The notes under the pieces: generated by a model
What the model was told of the DNA's origin: nothing
Databases searched by the model: none
What the model saw: only the letters and a program-made list of their open reading frames with translations
Part shown: positions 14,268 through 25,441 of the stretch, piece after piece
Position numbering within the stretch: position 1 is the stretch's first letter
How the letters are laid out: each line of letters begins with the position of its first letter
Made by a program: the position numbers and the translations under genes
NCBI GenBank assembly: GCA_031426015.1
Contig: JANPKK010000055.1
Coordinates: 17,912 to 81,911 of the forward strand
DNA from: Alphaproteobacteria bacterium
GTDB taxonomy: Bacteria; Pseudomonadota; Alphaproteobacteria; Sphingomonadales; Sphingomonadaceae
Reading direction: 5' to 3'
DNA length: 64,000 nt

Positions 14268-14343
14268 GCCGCTTTAGCTCAGCCGGTAGAGCACATCATT
14301 CGTAATGATGGGGTCAGGTGTTCGAGTCACCTAAGCGGCACCA
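14268..14343 (+). tRNA. tRNA-Thr (anticodon CGT)
   Basis: Hand-folded 76-nt cloverleaf. Acceptor GCCGCTT/AAGCGGC, D arm GCTC/GAGC, anticodon stem CATCA/TGATG with loop TTCGTAA, T arm AGGTG/CACCT with loop TTCGAGT. CCA is encoded. Confidence 0.95.
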
Positions 14344-14344
14344 T
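14295..14344 (+). repeat. attL: 50-bp direct repeat (3' two-thirds of tRNA-Thr)
   Basis: atcattcgtaatgatggggtcaggtgttcgagtcacctaagcggcaccat is identical base for base to 25326-25375. Confidence 0.9.
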
Positions 14345-14570
14345 TCCTTTTCAATGACTTAGGCGACTTTTCAATGAGGTCGCAAGTCTACACCCCACCA
14401 TAATCCCACCAAATTGGGCTGGAAATGCCCTTTCTTGCCGCCGTGTCGGGCTTGATCGGCAATCGGCCTGCGCCTGTTTGCTCCACGGATTTTGAACAAA
14501 GAAACGGGGCGCCCCCGGGGGGGGGGGTAAAATCGCTGATCCTGTTGCGGCCTCAAAAAGCCGCCTCTTG

Positions 14571-14613: not shown

Positions 14614-17271
14614 TTAAGCCGGCTTCGGCTTGACTATCGTTCGATTCATTAATGCAAAGTCCCGTTCGGTCGGCATACAGAACAGGCATTCGCCCCCGCT
14701 CGCTTCAGCCCAAACGGCCCCGATAGTCCGCTTAGGAGCCTCGGCTTCGTAGAGATGGCCGCCCTTGTATTCGACAACGAGAATGCGTCCATCGTCGAGC
14801 ATGGCGACGAAATCCGGGTAAAATTTCTGGTGGGGCAGTTGGAGCCAAAACGATCCCCGCTTGCCTTCTACATTCCTTATCCAATACCGAACCGCGTCCA
14901 TACGGTCGAGATGAACGGCGCAGTCAAATTCCTCCCCGCTCGGCTTCAAATCTCCCACTAGCGACGTGTAGTGTTTGTTGAACTTGGTTGCGCCCGCATA
15001 GGGCTGATTGAACGCATAGGTCGCTTCATCAAAGATCATCGACAAGTCGGCGTTGATGGCAAAATCCTGGGCGTTGGCAGCGAAGAGTGCATCGTAGTTG
15101 TGCGTTTCCCGTTCGTCCCGCAAATCCTTGATAAGGGCAATGATCGCCCGTCGTAGGTCGTGTTTGTTGCGGGCCAGATAGTCCAAATTATGACCGTCCG
15201 TCTCCAAAGCGGCCAAGGCACTTGAGATGAACAGGACGGCGCTGGGCTTAGTTACGTCTGGATGGCTTATCCCCGAGTCGATCCAGTTGACGAGGCGGGG
15301 AACGGTCCACGATGGTTCCTGTACAACTTCAGCGAGGTCGCCCTGCAACCGCTTGACGAAATTAATCTGAACCCTGCCCTGTTCTGAAACGTCAATTTGC
15401 CCGTGCTGGCTTTCATCCACAACCCTGAAGCGATCAACGATGGCGCTGGCATCGCATTCGTCCAGTCGCCACGGCAGGTCTAGAAAGTGCTCCTTGGAGA
15501 ACAGTTCCAATTCGCCCTGTTTTCGGAAACCGAGCAACGGGACAATAAACGGCGGCTTATCTTCCTCCGTCGCGGCGGAGGTCTGGAATTGGTTGGATTT
15601 GGCATAAAGCCGGTCAATGACCTTTTCGGCTTGCGGCACCTTGGCCATAGCCAGTTGCAGGATGTTTCGGCTTTCCCGCGACATAGGACCACGGAACGAT
15701 AGCGAACGGGTTACAGGGTCCAGCTTGACTCGCGACTTAACCGACGGGGGCAGTTTGTCAAAGATGGCAGCAACGTCCTCCATCGTGACCGCTTCATCGC
15801 TGATCGTGTCGGACTGGTAGTGGTAGTCAGCCTGATCCTCGGCAAAGCCAATGTCGCTTTGCGGGGCAATGATCTGATCAGCTTCCAGCTTGTTGAAGCC
15901 AGCGCCTTCCACCAGCCCGTCTTTCAGCCGTTGTGCGGTTTCATCGAAACTCTTTGCCGCCACATAGGCATAGGCGCGATTGAGGGCGTCGCGCTGCTTA
16001 CGCTTGGCCTTGGGCATCCGGAGCACCCGGCCCAAAATCTGTTCAATCGCCGTTTGTGATACCTGTTCGGCCACGGAGCACAGCACATATGCAAAGGGGC
16101 AATCCCAGCCCTCTTTTAGTTTCTGAACAGTGATGATGTAGCGGACGGGGCAAGCCGGATCGGTAATGTCGGCAATATCGTCCAGATCTTTGCGCGGGCC
16201 AGTGTGAACGGCAATCTGTGCCTTGGGAATGGACTTGTCCTCAAGCAAGTGCTGCTCGATCACCTCCCATGTCAGACGGGTTTTGTCGGTGGCGAGGGCG
16301 CTCTGTGCCTGAAACAGGATTAGGGGTCGGATATATTCCCCGGTCTCTGCCTGCTCCGCCTTTGCCGCTTCCTCCAGGGCCACTTGGCAATCCAGCGCCC
16401 CACCAATCGTCTTTCGCCAGTCGCTATCGGTCGTAAGGCGGATCGGCAGCTTGATCATCTGTTCCGCCTTCAACTCGGCAGCGGAGACGGAGTAGAGGAT
16501 ATTGGAAGCGTATTCGTCCTTTGCTGGATTGTGCACCGTCTGGGGCGTAGCAGTCAGTTCAAGGATCAATGACGGATCGAACCGGGCCAGCGTATCGAAT
16601 GACAAGGCGGTTCGGGCGTTGTGGGCTTCGTCAACGATCACCATCGGATGATGCAGCCGCAACAGATTGGCAAGGGAAGCAATAGGCCTGTCCGTGCCTT
16701 CCACCTTTTCCAGTCGGGCCATCTGGGCATCGGTCAAGCCGGAAAAATGGTCCATCAATTGCCCGGAGTCCTCATAGACCTTGCGGCCATCGGTTTCCTC
16801 GATGCGGAATGACTGAATGGTGGAAACAATGATGCAAGCTCCGCCCTCGGCATCGGCGCGGGACATGGCCAATGCTTCGGCCTTGGTCAGGACGGTGATG
16901 TTGCGGCCAAAGTCCTTGGCGAGCGCAGCACGATAGGGATGGTCCAAATTTTTGAGAGCATTCACTGTCTGATCAAGGATTGGTGTTGAAGGCACCAGCC
17001 ACAGCACAAGGGGGTTAGGCGCTTCGAGATAGTTCTTTGCCGCGATGCCTACCGCATGAGCACCCATGATTGTCTTGCCCCCGCCAGTCGGCACCCGAAG
17101 GCATACGTAGGGCGTCCCCTCAGCAATAAATGGAGCCTGCCGATAGGGCATTTTGGTTTCGAGGACGAAGGCGCTTTCCGCGTCAAATTGGACCGTTTTT
17201 CCGAGAAAGGATTTGAGCCGGCCAAGCGCAGCTTGCTGATATTCCTTCAGTTCAAGATTGATCGCAGCCAT
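14614..17271 (-). CDS. res: Type III restriction endonuclease subunit (SF2 helicase plus C-terminal PD-(D/E)xK nuclease)
   Basis: Helicase motifs VPTGGGKT (I), IVDEAHN (II) and LTATP (III). C-terminal nuclease-like YPDF...VVEYKG. The start is 1 nt after the mod stop. Confidence 0.85.
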   Translation of the reverse strand: MAAINLELKEYQQAALGRLKSFLGKTVQFDAESAFVLETKMPYRQAPFIAEGTPYVCLRVPTGGGKTIMGAHAVGIAAKNYLEAPNPLVLWLVPSTPILDQTVNALKNLDHPYRAALAKDFGRNITVLTKAEALAMSRADAEGGACIIVSTIQSFRIEETDGRKVYEDSGQLMDHFSGLTDAQMARLEKVEGTDRPIASLANLLRLHHPMVIVDEAHNARTALSFDTLARFDPSLILELTATPQTVHNPAKDEYASNILYSVSAAELKAEQMIKLPIRLTTDSDWRKTIGGALDCQVALEEAAKAEQAETGEYIRPLILFQAQSALATDKTRLTWEVIEQHLLEDKSIPKAQIAVHTGPRKDLDDIADITDPACPVRYIITVQKLKEGWDCPFAYVLCSVAEQVSQTAIEQILGRVLRMPKAKRKQRDALNRAYAYVAAKSFDETAQRLKDGLVEGAGFNKLEADQIIAPQSDIGFAEDQADYHYQSDTISDEAVTMEDVAAIFDKLPPSVKSRVKLDPVTRSLSFRGPMSRESRNILQLAMAKVPQAEKVIDRLYAKSNQFQTSAATEEDKPPFIVPLLGFRKQGELELFSKEHFLDLPWRLDECDASAIVDRFRVVDESQHGQIDVSEQGRVQINFVKRLQGDLAEVVQEPSWTVPRLVNWIDSGISHPDVTKPSAVLFISSALAALETDGHNLDYLARNKHDLRRAIIALIKDLRDERETHNYDALFAANAQDFAINADLSMIFDEATYAFNQPYAGATKFNKHYTSLVGDLKPSGEEFDCAVHLDRMDAVRYWIRNVEGKRGSFWLQLPHQKFYPDFVAMLDDGRILVVEYKGGHLYEAEAPKRTIGAVWAEASGGECLFCMPTERDFALMNRTIVKPKPA

Positions 17272-17272
17272 A

Positions 17273-18979
17273 TCAGTTTGCTTCGATCTGGTAGGGGATT
17301 TGTTTGAATGTCACGCCTTCCGTTCTCAGTCGGTCAGGCGATACTGTGCAACCCTCGCCATAGACAACACGCTGCCCGGAGAAGTCATCGGGGGGCGTGG
17401 GGATGTGCGCCAGTACGTCAGGCGTCAGCACGTTGCCAGCCGCTTCCCGCGCGATGCCCTGTTCAGCAGCGGAGAATAAGAGGTAAACTGCCTTTTCCTT
17501 GTACGTGCCAATGAACGAGGAATCGCCCTTCGCCTTGTGCGGAATGGGAGCGCCAGTTTCGGAAAAAAAGATATGCGCCGCAAGGTCTGGGAAGGTTACA
17601 CCCGGATCAATGTCGCCAAACTCGTTGAATAACGGGGTGCCTAGCCGACAATAGCGGAAACCGCTTCCTAAGCCTTCCACTGGCTTGGTTGGGTCGCCAC
17701 CTTTAGCATAGCCCGAAATGACGCGACGGAGGCGTTCTGCCGTAATATCTACAGATGTCGGTTTATCCATTTCGATCAAAATAAACCGCCGGTTTCTACC
17801 GTCCTGCTTATTCATTTCGAGAATGGCATGGCCACTCGTCCCTGATCCTGCAAACGAGTCCATGATAATATCATCAGCCTTGCTTACAAATGAGAGCAAA
17901 TAACTGATAAATTCAACAGATTTTGGATTTTTGAATATATCGCGTCTTCCAAAAATTGCTTCGATATCATTTGATCCTTTTCGAGAGTCAATGTTTACCA
18001 CACTACGAAATGGAAATCCAACATCGCACAAATATGCCTTCAATTCCGGAATTTTCTTTTCGTCCTTTCCAAAAATTATTCGACCCTCATCAATCAATTC
18101 GTCCATTCTATCCTTAGGAAAGCGCCATCCCCAAAGCGGCTTTTCGCAATTTTTCTTCGCTACTGGGTGTTCTATATCGTATTGATAGCCGTTTTTGCCG
18201 GGGTTTTCTAGGTTCCTACGAGCGACATAGACACCTCTTTCGTCTACTCGCTTGTAGCGCGCCAAATCTCCTAGAGATTTTGCGTTCTTTTTTATGAATG
18301 CCGCAAATACTCTTTGCCGATCTTTAATTGACTGGTGCTCTTTTTCAATCTGCGAAAAAACTTCAAGCATGAGGTCTTTTGTGTCATTTTCTGGGCCGCT
18401 CCATTGTCGTGCAAGCAAGTCTTTGTCTTTAGCGTAAACGACTACATATTCGTGTTCCACAGCAATCTGCGTAGGGTTATTGTCGGTCGCATTCTTCCAG
18501 ATGGCCGTGCCGATATGGTTCTTCCGACCGAAAATCTCGGCAAGCAGAAGATGCAAGGCTGCCTGCTCGTTGTCATCGCAGCTTACAAACAGGAGACCAT
18601 CCTTCTTTAGAAAGTCCTTCAAAAGATGAATGCGAGGATACATCATGCAGAGCCACTTGTCGTGGCGGCACAAGTCCTCAGCCTCCTTACCGACCGCTCG
18701 CCCAAGCCATGCGGCTATCTCAGGCGAACTTACCTTGTCGTTATATGTCCAATCTGCCTTTCCGGTGTTATAAGGCGGGTCGATATAGATGCACTTCACC
18801 TTGCCGGCGTAATAAGGAAGGAGCGCTTTAAGGGCTTCGAGGTTATCGCCCTGCACCAACAGATTTCCCGCGTCAGGGTCGCCCTCAGACAGTTCCCCAT
18901 CGCAGTGGATCAGGCGATAGGGCACCTCACGGTGATGATTGACGACGGCTTTTTTACCGATCCAGTCAAGCGTCGGCAT
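17273..18979 (-). CDS. mod: Site-specific DNA methyltransferase (Type III Mod-like, beta-class amino-MTase)
   Basis: Catalytic IDPPYNT lies upstream of the AdoMet motif DSFAGSGTSGHA (IV-before-I order). Its ATG shares one base with the stop of the upstream DUF262 gene. Confidence 0.9.
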   Translation of the reverse strand: MPTLDWIGKKAVVNHHREVPYRLIHCDGELSEGDPDAGNLLVQGDNLEALKALLPYYAGKVKCIYIDPPYNTGKADWTYNDKVSSPEIAAWLGRAVGKEAEDLCRHDKWLCMMYPRIHLLKDFLKKDGLLFVSCDDNEQAALHLLLAEIFGRKNHIGTAIWKNATDNNPTQIAVEHEYVVVYAKDKDLLARQWSGPENDTKDLMLEVFSQIEKEHQSIKDRQRVFAAFIKKNAKSLGDLARYKRVDERGVYVARRNLENPGKNGYQYDIEHPVAKKNCEKPLWGWRFPKDRMDELIDEGRIIFGKDEKKIPELKAYLCDVGFPFRSVVNIDSRKGSNDIEAIFGRRDIFKNPKSVEFISYLLSFVSKADDIIMDSFAGSGTSGHAILEMNKQDGRNRRFILIEMDKPTSVDITAERLRRVISGYAKGGDPTKPVEGLGSGFRYCRLGTPLFNEFGDIDPGVTFPDLAAHIFFSETGAPIPHKAKGDSSFIGTYKEKAVYLLFSAAEQGIAREAAGNVLTPDVLAHIPTPPDDFSGQRVVYGEGCTVSPDRLRTEGVTFKQIPYQIEAN

Positions 18980-20220
18980 CAGGAAGTGGCACCCTTCGAT
19001 AAATTGCAGTCCGCACAGGCCAGTTGGCCGTTGGCAACCGTTGTCTTACCGCCTTTGACGTGCGGTACGATATGGTCGGCATGCCAGTTATCCCAACCGA
19101 CTTTCACTCCATCGCACTTTATGGCGAGACGGCATTGCCCGCCATCCCGGCGATAGATCGCCAGCCGCTGTTCGTGGGAAAAGGTCCGGTTTGGGTCTGT
19201 CTGTTCAATGTTGGGGTAGGCTTCAAAAAAGCGCTTTTCGAGCAACTCCACCCGGCCCCGAATGCTTTCCTCGGTATCGGTGGATTGGCTTGTCAGGCGT
19301 TTGTATTCGACCAGCGAAACGTCTGCCAGGCCTTCGAAGTTGGTCAACGCGTCATTCCCGGCACGTTCGCCCTCAAACGCGATGAACCATGTAGCCAGGG
19401 GTGCTTGTAGCCCTTGCCAGACATAATTTTCGACTAGCTGCGAGGCTATCGCGTAAAGGCTTATCACGTTGTAGCGCGCTAGCTCTGGCGTTTTGTCAGG
19501 GAAGGCAGTTTTCAGAAATTCGAACACCCGGCGGACCTTTTTGGCCACCTTTCCGGCTGGATCGAAATCCGCATGATCTTGATACATTCGATTTAAATCG
19601 GCATCGCGGACGTTGGTAGGGCCGCCATTGATCTCGGTCAGGATCGTTTGGGCGGCAACATGATCGAACGCATAACGGGAATTGGCGAAGTTGCAGCTAT
19701 CAAAGAACGGGTGTCCCGCAGTCTGCCGGACAAAATCACGCATCTTGCCAGTCATGGCATTGCGCTTTTCCTGAGCCTTTAGCGTGGTGCCGTTCTGGAG
19801 CCGAAGGAACATGTCCCGTACTTCATCGTCAATTGCATCCATGATGATGACAACATCGAGTTGATATTCGTCAAATTTTTGCAAAATCTCGATAGGCAGT
19901 TGGGAATGCTTCAAGCCTGCGACCGTGAGACCGTCTATCGGGTCGGTATCCTTGGGCAGCGGAAACTCGTCTGCCTCAAATTCCCATATGGCGCGAAGCC
20001 GCTGCTGGCCATCGACCACCTCATACTGAATACCATCCGGCCTTGCGACCTTCCGCCAGTAGAATTTGGGAATGTCGTAATTTCGTAGGATGGTATCCAT
20101 CAACAATTGTTTTTGCTTGCGGGTCCATGCCGGGGGCCGCTGATAATCAGGCGTTGGATCAATACGGTTCTGCATCTTGCAAACTGTGGGGATTGCAAAC
20201 GGCTGCTTCTTCATTTCCAT
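18979..20220 (-). CDS. DUF262 (ParB-like NTPase) plus C-terminal HNH nuclease protein, GmrSD-like
   Basis: N-terminal DYQRPPAW ... VVDGQQRL motifs of DUF262. C-terminal His-Me finger HADHIVPHVKGGKTTVANGQLACADCNLSKG. GGGGG lies upstream of ATG 20220. Confidence 0.85.
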   Translation of the reverse strand: MEMKKQPFAIPTVCKMQNRIDPTPDYQRPPAWTRKQKQLLMDTILRNYDIPKFYWRKVARPDGIQYEVVDGQQRLRAIWEFEADEFPLPKDTDPIDGLTVAGLKHSQLPIEILQKFDEYQLDVVIIMDAIDDEVRDMFLRLQNGTTLKAQEKRNAMTGKMRDFVRQTAGHPFFDSCNFANSRYAFDHVAAQTILTEINGGPTNVRDADLNRMYQDHADFDPAGKVAKKVRRVFEFLKTAFPDKTPELARYNVISLYAIASQLVENYVWQGLQAPLATWFIAFEGERAGNDALTNFEGLADVSLVEYKRLTSQSTDTEESIRGRVELLEKRFFEAYPNIEQTDPNRTFSHEQRLAIYRRDGGQCRLAIKCDGVKVGWDNWHADHIVPHVKGGKTTVANGQLACADCNLSKGATS

Positions 20221-20333: not shown

Positions 20334-20564
20334 TCAGGCTTGCAAAGGCAGGGAGTCGGTTAAAGCGGCAACGTCGCATCTGAGGGCGATGCAGAGGCGG
20401 CATAGGACCGTAAACGTGACGTTGCGCTCCCCGCGCTCGACAGCGCCATAGTAGGATCGATCAACGTCCGCGACCAAGGCAAGCGCCTCCTGCGTCAGGC
20501 CGATGCTTTTTCGCTGCGCCCTGATTCTCTTGCCTAATTCGTGAAGGATTGCACCCTCGTCCAT
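20334..20564 (-). CDS. XRE-family HTH protein, RM controller (C-protein)-like
   Basis: 76 aa. IGLTQEALALVADVDRSYYGAVERGERNVTFTVLCRLCIAL matches the C-protein/XRE HTH pattern. It sits at the head of the restriction operon. Confidence 0.8.
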   Translation of the reverse strand: MDEGAILHELGKRIRAQRKSIGLTQEALALVADVDRSYYGAVERGERNVTFTVLCRLCIALRCDVAALTDSLPLQA

Positions 20565-20808: not shown

Positions 20809-21408
20809 ATGATTGGTAAGAGCGATTTTTACGCTATCGGCGGCCTGATTGTCGCAACGTTCCTGTTTTTGGCGGTCGGCAATTGGCCGTATGGCTATTA
20901 TCAATTCGTGAGAATTGCGACCTGTGGCTTTTCGATTGCGATAGTGCTTCGATCTGACCGACCTAGCGCAGGTGGTTGGCTTCTGTTTTCGGTGGCTGGG
21001 GCCATTTTGTTCAACCCAATTTTTCCGATCAGGATGGAGAAAGGCGATTGGGGTCTTGCCGATTTGGTGTTTGGAATCGGTTACGGCGCATACGGAATGC
21101 AATCGATGAGCCGGAGCATCGCTAAAGCAAGTTCGTTCCTAATCTGGATCGTGCTCGCAATCGTGATGAGCCTGACATTTTACGTCAATCACTACATGCC
21201 GCATGGTCCCTCTTACCCGACCGGCGACATTGTGTGCCAGAATGATGACCGGGGGCCATGCGGCGAGGAATACCGGGAAGATATGACCGGGTTAGACATT
21301 CCAGACTGGGCAAAAACTTTGCGGGAAAACTTTGCGGGCTTGGTCATGCTGCTGATTGTTGCCGGTATATGTGGGACCGCGATAGCAAAGGGCGATGACG
21401 CGGAGTGA
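20809..21408 (+). CDS. Hypothetical multi-pass membrane protein (island cargo)
   Basis: 199 aa with about 5-6 hydrophobic segments. Only one of two plus-strand genes in the island. No family recognised with confidence. Confidence 0.6.
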   Translation: MIGKSDFYAIGGLIVATFLFLAVGNWPYGYYQFVRIATCGFSIAIVLRSDRPSAGGWLLFSVAGAILFNPIFPIRMEKGDWGLADLVFGIGYGAYGMQSMSRSIAKASSFLIWIVLAIVMSLTFYVNHYMPHGPSYPTGDIVCQNDDRGPCGEEYREDMTGLDIPDWAKTLRENFAGLVMLLIVAGICGTAIAKGDDAE

Positions 21409-21509
21409 GTGCTGGCGAGCATCATGTGAACGCTTATGAGTTCCTATAAATGGTATCAGCACCCGTCCTACGGCAATTGCTGTATGTTCCTTCCTCTAAT
21501 CATATTGAT

Positions 21510-22994
21510 TCAATTGGCCTTCTTTAAGGAAGGCGTTCTTGCCAATCGTTGATAGTAAGCGTCAGTCATCAGCGCTTCCAATCTATCCTGTCGATCGATC
21601 GTGGTGATAAATGAGTCGTGCACTGACAGGACCGTCCAGCCTTCGGCCATCGCCGTTGACACGATTTCCAAGGCTATGTCGGACTCGATCCGCATCAGGT
21701 CCAACCCGGCCCCTGTCCGAAACGCCCCGGCTATTGGCTGGTGTAAGGCCTCGATGAAACCGACCATCTGCTTTACCGTGAGGTCTGGGGGCTTGATGAT
21801 TTTTTCCGGCAATTGCACGGCTTGGGGTCGCCCGCGGCCATTTATCAGAACCTGCATCAGCCATTTGACATAGGGGCGATAGGTCCGAGGCGCTTTGCCG
21901 GTTGCCGCCTCGTAGTCCGCAATCTCAGGCACGGTGTAGAGTTCGCCGTCGCCGTCCACGCCCGCCCGATGGTAAAGCATCCGGGGATGGCATTCTGCAT
22001 AGTCGATTTCCAACGTTGGTTGCCCATTGATCGTGATCGCCTTTCGTAGGCCTTCTTTCACCGACATCCACCAGCCGCCGAACAATCGCCCGCCTTTGTC
22101 AAACTTCGGATCGGCAGCGTCCCCGTCGTTGAAAACCCGATAAAGGTCCTTCTTGAACAATTCGGGCATTCGGTAGGGTGCCCCGGTTCGGTCGGGATTG
22201 TCGTTTTCAGCGGCTAACCAGAGGGCCAGGTCGTCGGGTGTCAGGCCAAATCCGATATTCTGTTGGCGGTAAAAGGCGTTGATCGCCGCTAGAGTCGCGA
22301 CCCATTCCAGTGTTTGCGCCGTTGGCTCGAACTTGATCGGCTTGCCCTTGTTGGGTTGAAATAATCCCCCCTTGTTCCAGTCATAGATGGGCGCCGGCTT
22401 CGGTGAAAAGAGCTGAACCAGTTCCGTTGGCTCATATCGATGATCGATGGATTTTGCCGAAAAACCGTATTCCGCCGCAATGCCTAACAGTTCGTCCGTA
22501 AGGCTGTAGGACGATGCCCAGGACGTCATCTCAGGCCCGTCATGCACCAATCCGCCGTTGATGGCCGTTACCAGCCCCGAACACGCCAAGCCATCCACAG
22601 CCCCGCCAAGAGCCCCGTGTCGCATCCATCCGGGCTTGTCCCTGTAGTGTTTCGAGTCCGCCCCTCGAAAATACAGGATCGATGGCAGTTTTCGATGCAA
22701 ATGCGCTCGCATCCCGTTGGCCAGCAACTTGCGTATTCGGGTTGTGTGGCTGGTTAGGTCTTTTGCCTTCCAAGCCCGGACCCGTGGATTGGCCTCATCG
22801 TAACGGATCAGAATGCGGGCCATGAAAGCCGCGCCAGCGGGATCGTGCAAATCAATATGTTCATCGAAGAAAGTGCCTTTGCCGGGAAGGATCGGCACCC
22901 GCGTCTTTTCGTCAGCTGCGACGGGTTCGACCTCCCCCGCGCCAATGGCAAAGTCGGCCAGAGGCCAAAGCCCCGGATCGCTGTCTAGGTCCAT
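21510..22994 (-). CDS. Hypothetical protein with family-A (Pol I / T7-like) polymerase palm-fingers motifs; putative island replicase
   Basis: Ordered motifs: DKGGRLF (res. 299-305), LEIDYAECHPRMLYH (D331), RPYVKWLMQVLINGRG (R373/K377) and LSVHDSF (H459/D460). The start lies 5 nt after the alpA-like stop. Confidence 0.55.
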   Translation of the reverse strand: MDLDSDPGLWPLADFAIGAGEVEPVAADEKTRVPILPGKGTFFDEHIDLHDPAGAAFMARILIRYDEANPRVRAWKAKDLTSHTTRIRKLLANGMRAHLHRKLPSILYFRGADSKHYRDKPGWMRHGALGGAVDGLACSGLVTAINGGLVHDGPEMTSWASSYSLTDELLGIAAEYGFSAKSIDHRYEPTELVQLFSPKPAPIYDWNKGGLFQPNKGKPIKFEPTAQTLEWVATLAAINAFYRQQNIGFGLTPDDLALWLAAENDNPDRTGAPYRMPELFKKDLYRVFNDGDAADPKFDKGGRLFGGWWMSVKEGLRKAITINGQPTLEIDYAECHPRMLYHRAGVDGDGELYTVPEIADYEAATGKAPRTYRPYVKWLMQVLINGRGRPQAVQLPEKIIKPPDLTVKQMVGFIEALHQPIAGAFRTGAGLDLMRIESDIALEIVSTAMAEGWTVLSVHDSFITTIDRQDRLEALMTDAYYQRLARTPSLKKAN

Positions 22995-22999
22995 CGCCG

Positions 23000-23200
23000 T
23001 TAGCCTTTGATCGCGGCGATGAAGGCTTCAACTTCATCCCGGACATATCGGGCGCAAGACCCGATGTAGCGGGGTTCAAGATCAAGGATGCAGGGTTGCC
23101 CGTGTCGGCGTCGATAGCGCTGGCCTCGAACCCAAGCCGGGGACATGTTCAGTATGCGGGCAATGTCTTTGTCTGAATAAAATTCAGCTATCGCGTTCAT
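23000..23200 (-). CDS. AlpA/excisionase-family HTH DNA-binding protein
   Basis: 66 aa. DIARILNMSPAWVRGQRYRRRHG is a typical AlpA/Xis-type HTH. It is positioned between the integrase and the replication-like gene, as in P4-type islands. Confidence 0.65.
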   Translation of the reverse strand: MNAIAEFYSDKDIARILNMSPAWVRGQRYRRRHGQPCILDLEPRYIGSCARYVRDEVEAFIAAIKG

Positions 23201-23464
23201 GGCAACCTCGCTTAACCGTCGATGGGATGGACGGTAAACGTTGGCCGCAACACTTCAGGGTCGCCGCCTTATCGGACCCCTTGACCTCCGAAGAGGCGGT
23301 TACGGTAGTCGCCTACGCATGAGACGTGCGAATGCCTCTGGTGACAGATAAGCCCGCTCGCTTCGTATTGCAAGCGCAAATCGTTAGATTCTTAGTTTGA
23401 AATCACACCCCGGGCGCGCAGCCCTCGCCAGCAACCGCCCTGCGATGTATGGATAGCGCACGGT

Positions 23465-23704
23465 ATGGAGACCACAATGCGTAAAAAGGAGCGGGAGACC
23501 CTCATTCGGGAGAAAGCAAGGGCGCTTGCGGCAACAGGTGATTTTAGCAGCTGGCTGATCATTGAGCAGCATTTGAGATTTAATCTTGGCTATCCCGAAG
23601 CCCGCCAAGTCTTAGAAGGCTACATCCGTGACGAGCTGCAAGAGACATGTGACCGGGCGCAGGCGCGAAAGAAAGCGCCGTCAGATGACTCGAATTTCGA
23701 TTGA
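23465..23704 (+). CDS. Hypothetical small protein (island)
   Basis: 79-aa ORF, charged and helical-looking. No family recognised. Confidence 0.35.
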   Translation: METTMRKKERETLIREKARALAATGDFSSWLIIEQHLRFNLGYPEARQVLEGYIRDELQETCDRAQARKKAPSDDSNFD

Positions 23705-23869
23705 AAAATCGCAATTGATCGAATTCTGGTGTTCGCAAGCTAAGCCGCGTTCACGGTGAATATCCCCTAGACTTTGCTAGACTGTCGTTCTGCCGATAGC
23801 CGAAGCGCGATTGGCCATTCCTTCATCGCTATCCTTCGGTTCCGGGCGCGGACAAAGGGACTCGTCCGC

Positions 23870-25111
23870 CTATGGCCTAGCTGCCGATGCCGGCGTTCCC
23901 GATGCACCGCGTTGTCCAAAACGCTCCGCCGCTTCTGCATCGCCCCGGTCAACCGCGTAGTGCCTGCCCAGCATGCTAAGGCCAGAGTGGCCCAGCCTGC
24001 CGGCAATCGCCTTTGGATCGATGCCTTCTTGCATAAGAATGGTGGCATGGGTTCGGCGAAGGTCGTGCAATTGCACATCTGGCAGGCCAGTTTCAGCCCA
24101 GAGGCGGGACAAGGACCGCTTTAGCGTCATCATCGAAACCGGAAACAATCGATCATCGTCCGGCGCCCGTTCCAGCTTGGACAATGCCTCTAGGATGGCC
24201 TCCATTTCGGGCGTGCAGCTGATGTGACGCGGCTTCGCTGTCTTTGTATGGATTACCTCAATCTGCGTTGCCCTGCCTTCCAGCGGCCTCACATTGCGCC
24301 ACGTCAGGGCGAGAATTTCCGCCCGCCGCATTCCCGAATTGTAAGCCCAGACGACGAAATGACGGAGCCAGCCACGGATTTGCTGCGGGACTTGTTCCTT
24401 CTTGGCGTCTTGCTTGGCTTCGATCCGCTCGGCGGTTTCTATGATCTTTTGCCACTCCGCCTCCGTGACGAACCTCTGTCGGGGCTCAATGCCCCTAACC
24501 TTGTCGGCATTCTGAACCGGGTTTCGTTCGATGACCCCATTCCGAACCGCATCATTCATGATCGCCTTGAATACCGCCAGATGGCGCATCACCGAAGATG
24601 GTTTCAGGTTGGCGCTTTGCTTGCCGATCCATCGATTCACATCACCCGGCGTGATTGCATCGAGCGGGAGTTTGCCAAATGTCGGGTTTAGAGCCGAACG
24701 GACGTTGCCCTGGGTGACGGCAAAGCCGCGATGTACAGCCTCCTTCTGTTCAAGCCATCCTTCCGCGTATTTTGCAAACGTCGGGACTTCGACCTCTTCC
24801 AGCGGGAGGCCTTTGTCTGCCAGCCCTTGCAACCTGTCACGCTCGGCAATCATTTCTGCCCAATCGAAGGAAGTTCGCCTTCCCAGCTTGATCTCCGTCG
24901 CTTTTCCCGGGGCAATGTGTTTGCCGCCGGATACCGCGCCGTGGGGACAGCGGATTTTGACCCAGACAGTGTAGTCTCGCGCGCCGCGAAACAGGCCGAT
25001 GCCGTGGAGGTATTCAGGCCGCTTGGCCATCACATCGGGAAGGCGAGCTTCGAAGGCTTCATATTCAGCATAGCGGCCTGGACGGCCAATCGGACGGCGT
25101 GGGGCTGGCAT
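23870..25111 (-). CDS. int: Tyrosine-type site-specific integrase
   Basis: C-terminal catalytic region HDLRRTHATILMQEGIDPKAIAGRLGHSGLSMLGRHYA (R...HxxR...Y). Its 5' end is 215 bp from attR. Confidence 0.95.
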   Translation of the reverse strand: MPAPRRPIGRPGRYAEYEAFEARLPDVMAKRPEYLHGIGLFRGARDYTVWVKIRCPHGAVSGGKHIAPGKATEIKLGRRTSFDWAEMIAERDRLQGLADKGLPLEEVEVPTFAKYAEGWLEQKEAVHRGFAVTQGNVRSALNPTFGKLPLDAITPGDVNRWIGKQSANLKPSSVMRHLAVFKAIMNDAVRNGVIERNPVQNADKVRGIEPRQRFVTEAEWQKIIETAERIEAKQDAKKEQVPQQIRGWLRHFVVWAYNSGMRRAEILALTWRNVRPLEGRATQIEVIHTKTAKPRHISCTPEMEAILEALSKLERAPDDDRLFPVSMMTLKRSLSRLWAETGLPDVQLHDLRRTHATILMQEGIDPKAIAGRLGHSGLSMLGRHYAVDRGDAEAAERFGQRGASGTPASAARP

Positions 25112-25325
25112 AAGGGCACCTTGACGATTGCTGTTGGTGGGGTGTTAGTGGGGAATAGCGCAAACGGTCGCTAAAATCACCTTAAATTTTACCCCACCAA
25201 ATCCCCACAGGAAACGTCAGTAAACCCTTGTAACGCTCAAAAACGATGAAAACTCATAGTTTTGTCAAACCTAAGAATTCCCGGAACTTAGGTAACGCCC
25301 ATAGCGTCAGAAAACATGTGAACAT

Positions 25326-25375
25326 ATCATTCGTAATGATGGGGTCAGGTGTTCGAGTCACCTAAGCGGCACCAT
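25326..25375 (+). repeat. attR: 50-bp direct repeat (partial tRNA-Thr copy)
   Basis: Identical to 14295-14344. It lacks the 5' third of the tRNA, so it is not a functional tRNA gene. Confidence 0.9.
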
Positions 25376-25441
25376 CCCTTTCACAAGGCAAATCCAAGCG
25401 TGGGACGGAAAAAGTTCCCGTCGGGTCGCGGCTGGGACGCC

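Follow-up and report, generated by a model that had tools for sequence, protein, structure and literature searches.

The gene studied here lies on the minus strand of a 64,000-nucleotide (nt) stretch of DNA (the window, positions 17,912 to 81,911 of contig JANPKK010000055.1 in assembly GCA_031426015.1) from an alphaproteobacterium of the Sphingomonadaceae, where it encodes a 494-amino-acid (aa) protein with the active-site motifs of family-A polymerases and forms part of an island integrated at a tRNA-Thr gene. The span 21510-23200 holds both this gene, here called pol, and a small AlpA-like gene upstream of it, and a preliminary description made from the letters alone had placed the start of pol 5 nt after the end of the alpA-like gene. 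The open reading frame (ORF) coordinates agree (the spacer is 22995-22999, from the alpA stop codon to the pol ATG), and the two genes probably form one operon. The pol stop codon is 21510-21512. The genes and the parts of the encoded protein are as follows.

23000..23200, minus strand: AlpA-like small helix-turn-helix (HTH) gene, 66 aa, with a weak Pfam match (HTH_17, E=2e-4).
21510..22994, minus strand: polymerase-like gene (divPolA2/TV-Pol-like, 494 aa), from the ORF list, an AlphaFold2 (AF2) model, Foldseek and hhalign to DNA polymerase I (Pol I).
22329..22901, minus strand: family-specific N-terminal domain, residues 32-222, consisting of a hairpin of helices and an alpha/beta unit, from a separate AF2 model.
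21513..22319, minus strand: catalytic Pol-A-like region, residues about 226-494, from DSSP of the model and hhalign.
22080..22100, minus strand: DKGGRLF, residues 299-305, the 'TxxGR' beta-hairpin motif, with R303 corresponding to Klenow R668.
21969..22013, minus strand: motif A, LEIDYAECHPRMLYH, residues 328-342, with D331 corresponding to D705 and R338 to R712.
21831..21878, minus strand: motif B (O-helix), RPYVKWLMQVLINGRG, residues 373-388, with R373 corresponding to R754 and K377 to K758.
21609..21629, minus strand: motif C, LSVHDSF, residues 456-462, with H459 corresponding to H881 and D460 to D882.

The four motifs had been picked out by eye, and all of them are present in the translation at the residues given at the time (299-305, 328-342, 373-388 and 456-462). 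The reference motifs quoted then agree with the actual sequences: E. coli Pol I has TATGRLSS at 664, DYSQIELR at 705, RRSAKAINFGLIYG at 754 and VHDE at 880, and T7 RNA polymerase (RNAP) has DWRGRVY at 421, RSVTKRSVMTLAYG at 627 and HDSF at 811. Within this framework, H336 of motif A occupies the steric-gate position (Klenow E710, as aligned by hhalign), N385 stands where Klenow (Y766) and T7 RNAP (Y639) have Tyr, and S461 is found in place of E883 of the DNA polymerases and is the same as in the HDSF of T7 RNAP. The palm Gln of Klenow (Q849) aligned with M434, a position that is Gln in 57 of 102 homologues. In the AF2 model, DSSP placed in the catalytic region two helices (226-243 and 253-265), the beta-hairpin bearing R303, the palm and the fingers; judged from the model, the two helices are possibly a minimal thumb.

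Searches returned 125 homologues, none of which has a Pfam domain. When 31 of these proteins were aligned (down to 23% identity), 14 columns were invariant, among them G302, R303, D331, K377, H459 and D460. A wider alignment of 102 sequences comprised the Sphingomonad group, 68 proteins from a wide range of other bacterial groups and five from phages and went down to ~17% identity; its sole invariant columns were D331, K377 and D460, the very residues whose conservation the preliminary description had proposed to examine. Around them, conservation was high in the beta-hairpin (R303, 100/102; G302, 101/102), in motif A for E329 (100/102) and less so for H336 (74/102), in motif B for R373 (92/102) and N385 (87/102), and in motif C for S461 (95/102) and H459 (90/102). 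With two metal-binding Asp and an O-helix Lys that never vary, and Arg residues that are mostly kept, the active site is under strong purifying selection, a pattern to be expected only where catalysis is selected for.

The fold pointed in the same direction. The AF2 model of the whole protein (predicted local distance difference test [pLDDT], 88.5; predicted template-modelling score, 0.86) was compared with the PDB by Foldseek, and the 50 best matches were family-A polymerases exclusively (E 2.5e-5 to 1e-3; probability 0.97-1.0), including Bst LF, Taq/KlenTaq, Klenow, the apicoplast Pol, Pol theta and M. smegmatis Pol1. The template-modelling (TM) scores of these matches were just 0.2-0.3, because the ~340 aligned columns span proteins of differing size and conformation. 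We also compared the family by hhalign with a profile of the Pol I polymerase domain (E. coli, T7 gp5 and seven diverse phage PolAs) and found a match at E=1.2-1.6e-5 (probability 79-81%) in which R303, D331, H336, R338, R373, K377, N385, H459, D460 and S461 paired with Klenow R668, D705, E710, R712, R754, K758, Y766, H881, D882 and E883, respectively, so that the pairing with Pol I first made by eye was reproduced (E=1.2e-5). In a greedy run, residues 128-492 aligned to the Klenow polymerase domain. The likeness of motif C to that of T7 RNAP, likewise remarked on at the outset, reappeared as a local match between the motif-C region (residues 435-483) and the C-terminal profile of T7-like RNAPs (T7 785-839) at E=1.7e-3; the Pol I profile gave a weaker match (E=0.033) to the same T7-like RNAP profile. 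Against E. coli Pol I or T7 RNAP as single sequences the family profile gave no significant hhalign match, showing that profiles are needed on both sides.

No unrelated characterised family came forward in the searches of Pfam, NCBIfam, PADLOC and PDB sequences: Pfam and NCBIfam gave no match to the 494-aa protein at E<=1, and among PDB sequences no chain was found by phmmer and none at E<=10 by the family hidden Markov models (HMMs). The sole match in HMM libraries was to PHROG phrog_4756, of unknown function (E=7.5e-26, residues 297-481). Kinship to the family-A polymerases is thus detectable solely through profile-profile comparison and structure. Neither Pfam nor the AF2 model showed an exonuclease domain in the protein. 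We concluded from alignment and model that the 494-aa protein is a pared-down representative of the Pol I / T7 RNAP superfamily (family A) with its active-site residues intact and, on the same grounds, that it is very probably an active polymerase of the Pol-A fold.

The N-terminal part of the protein, in which the preliminary description had recognised nothing, begins with 31 residues predicted to be disordered. A separate AF2 model of residues 32-222 reached a pLDDT of 91.8, and Foldseek against the PDB gave nothing significant for it (best E=0.28). The weak matches were mostly winged-helix DNA binders (MarR, GntR, PadR and RTP), and our guess from the model is that this domain may bind DNA. 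The domain (~190 aa), fused to the core, is confined to this family, and the 10 longest of the top family members had no fused Pfam domain.

Close relatives of the protein turned up in phages. Foldseek against BFVD gave full-length matches to 400-450-aa proteins from phages of Aeromonas, Rheinheimera and other hosts (E 2e-24 to 5e-17; TM-scores up to 0.72; 412-518 alignment columns), among them the 'DNA polymerase' of Rheinheimera phage Barba31A. By tblastn, the window protein led to gp029 of Aeromonas phage 2L372X (3e-8), and gp029 led to 115 Rheinheimera barba phage records (~3e-21), to AUR84708 in MG592441.1 (6e-15) and to ICP1 ORF100 (4e-10). AUR84708, from Vibrio phage 1.063.O, is the published representative of divPolA2, a group defined in 2024 from phages that include the barbaviruses (Virol J 2024;21:200, PMC11348598). 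That account gives its traits as an active palm and a novel N-terminal globular domain, without a homologous thumb and without an exonuclease, and suggests as its function a 'repair DNAP or RNA polymerase' (PMC11348598). Other papers of the literature searched did not contain the term 'divPolA2'.

The window protein shares with divPolA2 the sequence family, the fold and the architecture (an N-terminal globular domain plus palm and fingers, with no exonuclease and no classical thumb), and the D, K and D residues stay invariant in a joint alignment of the divPolA2 phage members with the window family. The phage members are 16-22% identical to the window protein, which is about 50-60 aa longer. 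Whereas divPolA2 was described only in lytic Caudoviricetes phages with variable neighbourhoods, the window copy is chromosomal and sits in an island with int and alpA; the available part of PMC11348598 mentions neither the bacterial branch nor how large it is, nor its linkage to recombinases. Taken together, sequence and model indicate that the window protein is a bacterial homologue of phage divPolA2. An exhaustive profile search put the size of the family at no fewer than 11,740 clusters (at least that number at 50% identity, E<=1e-3), with 5,174 such clusters at E<=1e-30; none of the members examined has a Pfam domain, and the family is without a Pfam model.

Some individual members deserve mention. 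ORF100 of Vibrio phage ICP1_2011_A (MH310933.1 59633-60937, annotated as hypothetical) is a full-length family member with a HigA-like HTH gene directly upstream, and in Vibrio phage VPMCC14 (L001) an XRE gene lies just upstream of the family copy. On the Thioclava electrotropha plasmid pTElox9 (NZ_CP053563.1 34925-35860, L002), the pol copy is 5'-truncated by an IS21 insertion and adjoins a DEAD/DEAH-box helicase-family gene and a DNA methyltransferase gene (29% identity to the type III mod of the window), and an AbiE toxin-antitoxin pair lies near it.

We looked at the surroundings of the gene in 80 loci from species-representative genomes, which cover Alpha- and Gammaproteobacteria, Desulfobacterota, Bdellovibrionota, Myxococcota, Ignavibacteria, Victivallales, Planctomycetes, Spirochaetes and Parcubacteria, and clustered the neighbours (ORFs within 4 kb) all against all in 78 of them. 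Within 4 kb, 46 of the 78 loci have a tyrosine integrase (30 of them upstream, on the strand of pol) and 15 have a serine recombinase; clusters of XRE HTH and AlpA-like HTH genes were present in 7 and 6 loci, respectively. No cluster of genes for a helicase, a primase or an SSB (a protein that binds single-stranded DNA) was conserved near pol in the 78 loci, and Pfam counts on the upstream ORFs concur.

The close Sphingomonad islands have a constant backbone of int, alpA and pol, to which some of them add a 211-aa unknown protein between int and alpA. The alpA-like gene lies immediately upstream of pol in 7/7 close islands (tblastn, 53-78% identity); a gene of this kind was called in the same position in L006, L112, L113 and L114, and the gap of 5 nt recurs in L112 and L113. 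Their cargo varies (type I restriction-modification [RM] with Abi_C, PIN-TPR-GreABC, Type ISP RM, RVT_1, methylases and insertion sequence [IS] elements), and the genes downstream of pol, where called, are convergent with it and not homologous to one another, with the exception that in L114 the downstream genes run in the same direction. PADLOC assigned the polymerase gene to no defence family at E<=1e-3. The co-occurrence of pol with int and alpA amid changing cargo, together with the lack of a PADLOC match, argues that pol belongs to the mobility/maintenance core and is not defence cargo, and the earlier idea of a defence-associated synthase therefore finds no support. In the literature we found no relevant island, satellite or AlpA paper mentioning such a polymerase.

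In the window itself, the island setting that had been proposed is borne out by 62-nt tRNA-Thr repeats and a drop in G+C content. The repeats, whose copies are 95% identical, are direct and enclose ~11 kb; the tRNA-Thr(cgt) gene at 14268-14343 is the only tRNA gene in the window, and G+C is 0.48-0.57 within the island versus about 0.65-0.69 in most of the flanking sequence. The remaining features of the island are these.

14289..14350, plus strand: attL, 62-nt repeat formed by the 3' part of tRNA-Thr(cgt), from tRNA and repeat searches.
14614..17271, minus strand: res, type III RM.
17273..18979, minus strand: mod, type III RM.
18979..20220, minus strand: NsnA-like nuclease with GmrSD_N and HNH.
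20334..20564, minus strand: XRE-family HTH gene, 76 aa (HTH_3, E=6e-13).
20809..21408, plus strand: DUF6804 membrane protein, convergent with pol.
21433..21453, minus strand: 21-nt conserved non-coding motif CCATTTATAGGAACTCATAAG, from comparison of related islands and blastn.
23465..23704, plus strand: 79-aa ORF between alpA and the integrase gene, with no Pfam match.
23870..25111, minus strand: tyrosine integrase (Phage_integrase, E=2.9e-19), 57-64% identical in related islands.
25320..25381, plus strand: attR, second copy of the 62-nt repeat, from the repeat search.

Read on the minus strand from attR, the island thus runs int, alpA-like, pol, the convergent DUF6804 gene, XRE, the NsnA-like gene and type III mod/res, and in the cargo block (res, mod and the NsnA-like gene, 14614-20220) neighbouring genes overlap or abut. 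PADLOC rates the XRE gene as an RM 'control protein', but its identity is 78-90% across four related islands (L017, L101, L034 and L102) that differ in cargo and have polymerases of only 37-59% identity. Because it is kept across islands with differing cargo, it looks, from these comparisons, like a backbone regulator of the island family and not RM cargo. The 79-aa ORF is not conserved in related islands. Pfam and PADLOC revealed no helicase, SSB or phage structural genes among the ORFs of the window island. Between attL and the 3' end of res, at ~14510-14530, there is a non-coding C5G11 homopolymer stretch, gcgcccccggggggggggg.

The 21-nt motif CCATTTATAGGAACTCATAAG lies 57-77 nt past the pol stop codon on the strand of the gene, and its core is CCATTTATAGGAAC. 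It was first found in nine related islands, whose polymerases are 31-59% identical. In a prospective test, three further islands chosen without regard to the motif all had it, 15-85 nt past the stop codon, and the motif is therefore present downstream of the pol stop codon in 12/12 related islands. It is a candidate cis site of the enzyme, which might be a priming start, an origin or a promoter. A loose pattern of the motif run over 88 loci gave 20 forward and 9 reverse matches, against a shuffle maximum of 19, and about half of the forward matches stem from the islands that defined the pattern, so that this wider result is no more than suggestive. An inverted copy inside the pol gene (21838-21851) encodes VLING and was taken as chance. 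Scanning 21300-23950 for promoters and terminators yielded nothing beyond shuffled expectation.

The preliminary description had called a miniature Pol-A-like enzyme acting as island replicase or as defence-associated synthase unusual. As to novelty this needs correcting, since miniature Pol-A-like enzymes of mobile elements had appeared in the literature before: TV-Pol (2008), CcPol-MP (2020) and, from phages, divPolA2 (2024). With Pol I and the T7-like RNAPs the window protein shares TxxGR and motifs A, B and C in the same order and a right-hand palm and fingers, but its catalytic region is about 270 aa long versus 409 aa for the Klenow polymerase domain (residues 520-928), and it is without the exonuclease domains of Pol I and without a T7-type promoter-binding domain. 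TV-Pols are minimal Pol-A polymerases of 400-600 aa from transposons and viruses (Iyer, Abhiman & Aravind 2008, Biol Direct 3:39, PMC2579912), which adjoin resolvases, lambda integrases or transposases, with RM operons nearby; the same paper predicted that they are prim-pols (PMC2579912). Like the window protein, they have the beta-hairpin Arg, an RRM palm with two Asp residues and HTH fingers with RxxxK, as well as thumb helices, which are assigned only tentatively in the window protein; they lack nuclease domains, and a subset of them likewise has an extra N-terminal domain. A TV-Pol-like neighbourhood with integrase or resolvase, close to RM genes, is seen in the window family, including a resolvase-adjacent member (P0113). 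TV-Pols differ in that their N-terminal domain, TV-PolN, is all-helical whereas that of the window protein is alpha/beta, and in their fusion or linkage to a D5-like helicase, of which the window family has none in the 78 loci.

A comparison with a probable TV-Pol was possible through Microcystis phage Ma-LMM01. Its gp030 (NC_008562.1 22746-24266, L105) is a 506-aa hypothetical protein encoded beside IS605-type transposases and, from that position, is probably the Ma-LMM01 TV-Pol of the 2008 paper; its motifs are GLR, NxD..KCH, K-x7-NG and QHDG, and it has six detectable relatives in 5.8 billion proteins. The window family aligned with the gp030 family by hhalign at E=3.8e-5 (probability 71%) through GR, motif A (D..CH), motif B (K-x7-NG), Q and HD, a distance not smaller than that to Pol I itself, and the gp030 family gave no significant alignment with the Pol I profile. 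A structural match to the replication protein of a virophage (Zamilon; E=2.4e-5) was likewise no better than that to Pol I. It is plausible that the window family is TV-Pol in the broad sense. Two further leads were rejected: gp134 of Ma-LMM01 ('putative DNA primase', encoded beside transposases) was set aside as a TV-Pol, its CxxC Zn-finger-like and Toprim-like EGxxD motifs (by eye) pointing to a DnaG-type primase, and it matched neither the family profile nor the Pol I profile significantly; the P0113 element (205 aa, resolvase, pol) could not be tied to the Brucella TV-Pol element, since the Bro-N/KilA-C domain was not found.

CcPol-MP of SCCmec (Bebel et al. 2020 eLife; Rice 2023) is an A-family polymerase that was shown to prime de novo, with a preferred start beside its operon (PMC7581432; PMC10061031), and it is the functional precedent for the mechanism proposed below. 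CcPol and the window protein are both A-family domains encoded near the recombinases of a small integrative element. CcPol, however, is Pol I-like, annotated as A-family and found in Bacillota, needs the oligonucleotide-binding-fold protein MP and works with the Cch2 helicase, whereas the window protein has no Pfam match and a different N terminus, and the SSB and helicase genes of the CcPol-MP operon have no conserved counterpart in the 78 loci or in the window island.

By analogy with CcPol-MP and with the prediction made for TV-Pol, the best explanation of the whole is that the gene encodes a site-specific primase-polymerase belonging to the element, to which we give a probability of about 0.5; the narrower statement that the 494-aa protein primes or replicates the element is put forward tentatively. 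Under this explanation, AlpA-controlled induction and excision would be followed by action of the enzyme as the element's own primase-polymerase. The N-terminal domain would place it at a specific site, for which the 21-nt motif just downstream of the gene is the candidate, and the Pol-A active site (D331/D460 with two metals, and R373/K377 gripping the incoming nucleotide) would synthesise a primer de novo. The host helicase and Pol III or Pol I would then take over, because the element is without helicase, SSB and clamp genes. Given a His at the steric gate, an HDS motif C and an Asn for the O-helix Tyr, the first product could be either RNA or DNA.

Several observations weigh against this explanation. 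On a best Foldseek E value of 0.28, DNA binding by the modelled N-terminal domain is not demonstrable; the cis motif is established, by sequence comparison, within the Sphingomonad group only; and there are no convincing iterons or AT-rich origin-like repeats around the gene. No conserved helicase or SSB partner was seen among the neighbouring sequences, in contrast to CcPol with its partner MP and the Cch2 helicase. In addition, the lytic phages that harbour family members have a replicative polymerase of their own, and the members lie in variable early-like regions, sometimes as two or three paralogues (PMC11348598 and the phage loci examined here). Copies that sit beside another replicase, vary in position and have paralogues fit poorly with an essential replicase, and they are the main argument that the family may have another role, in RNA synthesis, repair or conflict.

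The main rival is a single-subunit DNA-dependent RNA polymerase that would use a short T7/SP6-like promoter (...TATAGGAAC...) to produce a specific transcript, which would serve the expression or regulation of element genes or else act as an RNA primer, in which last form it merges with the primase-polymerase explanation. Motif C speaks for it, being HDS (S461 in 95/102) as in the HDSF of T7 RNAP and unlike the HDE of DNA polymerases, and the motif-C region matched the T7-like RNAP profile at 1.7e-3 where the Pol I profile reached 0.033; the steric-gate Glu is missing, with His in 74/102, and T7-like RNAPs are among the BFVD structural matches (E about 2.5e-3). The core ATAGG/TATAG of the 21-nt motif also recalls the promoters of T7 and SP6, although the resemblance spans about 5-7 nt only. 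Profile and structure matches are nevertheless stronger to DNA polymerases, Asn replaces a Tyr common to T7 RNAP (Y639) and Pol I (Y766), and the N-terminal domain is without a significant structural match, T7 RNAP elongation complexes appearing at E>2 only. Furthermore, synthesis from the motif in the direction of the gene would run antisense into the convergent cargo genes of those close islands in which downstream genes were called (L114 excepted). We regard an RNA polymerase as unlikely on balance, and we judge in much the same way an accessory DNA polymerase acting outside replication of the element, which would fill gaps or make repairs as the element integrates, excises or transposes, or would carry out conflict-related (defence or anti-defence) synthesis. 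The phage copies in genomes with a replicase of their own, with their variable neighbourhoods and paralogues (PMC11348598), would suit such an enzyme, as would the defence cargo of the islands and the tight linkage of the gene to site-specific recombinases; but the gene has no match to a PADLOC defence model, it stays with int and alpA as the cargo changes, no conserved partner gene of a defence-operon type was found in the 78 loci, and the chemistry of tyrosine and serine recombinases requires no polymerase (textbook knowledge). It seems very improbable that the protein has lost catalysis and that its polymerase fold now serves for DNA binding as an initiator or regulator: its strong divergence from Pol I, its lack of a proper thumb and the Asn in place of the O-helix Tyr would be compatible with this, but none of the 102 sequences departs from the metal-binding Asp pair or the O-helix Lys, and the hairpin Arg (100/102) and O-helix Arg (92/102) are nearly as constant.

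The primase-polymerase explanation has a more far-reaching form, which we consider rather doubtful, in which the family would form a third class of sequence-specific replication initiators, built on Pol-A, with one protein that recognises a short promoter-like site (CCAT..TATAGGAAC) beside its own gene and starts synthesis there de novo. If this were true, thousands of small integrase/resolvase islands, many of them with defence cargo, would be replicating autonomously after excision, and the phage copies (e.g., ICP1 ORF100) would be the same device in lytic phages.

To our knowledge, known primases are nearly all of the DnaG or archaeo-eukaryotic type, and priming based on Pol-A has been shown for CcPol-MP only. 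What is new here is the bacterial branch in integrative islands and its size, its linkage to recombinases without a helicase, and the conserved cis motif. The family is large, is without a Pfam model and forms a central part of many small integrative islands by which restriction and other defence genes pass between bacteria. Knowing what product the enzyme synthesises would show how such minimal islands are maintained or amplified after excision, and it would help to define a minimal functional Pol-A core and possibly yield a compact polymerase with a defined start site, for which the 21-nt motif offers a concrete candidate substrate.

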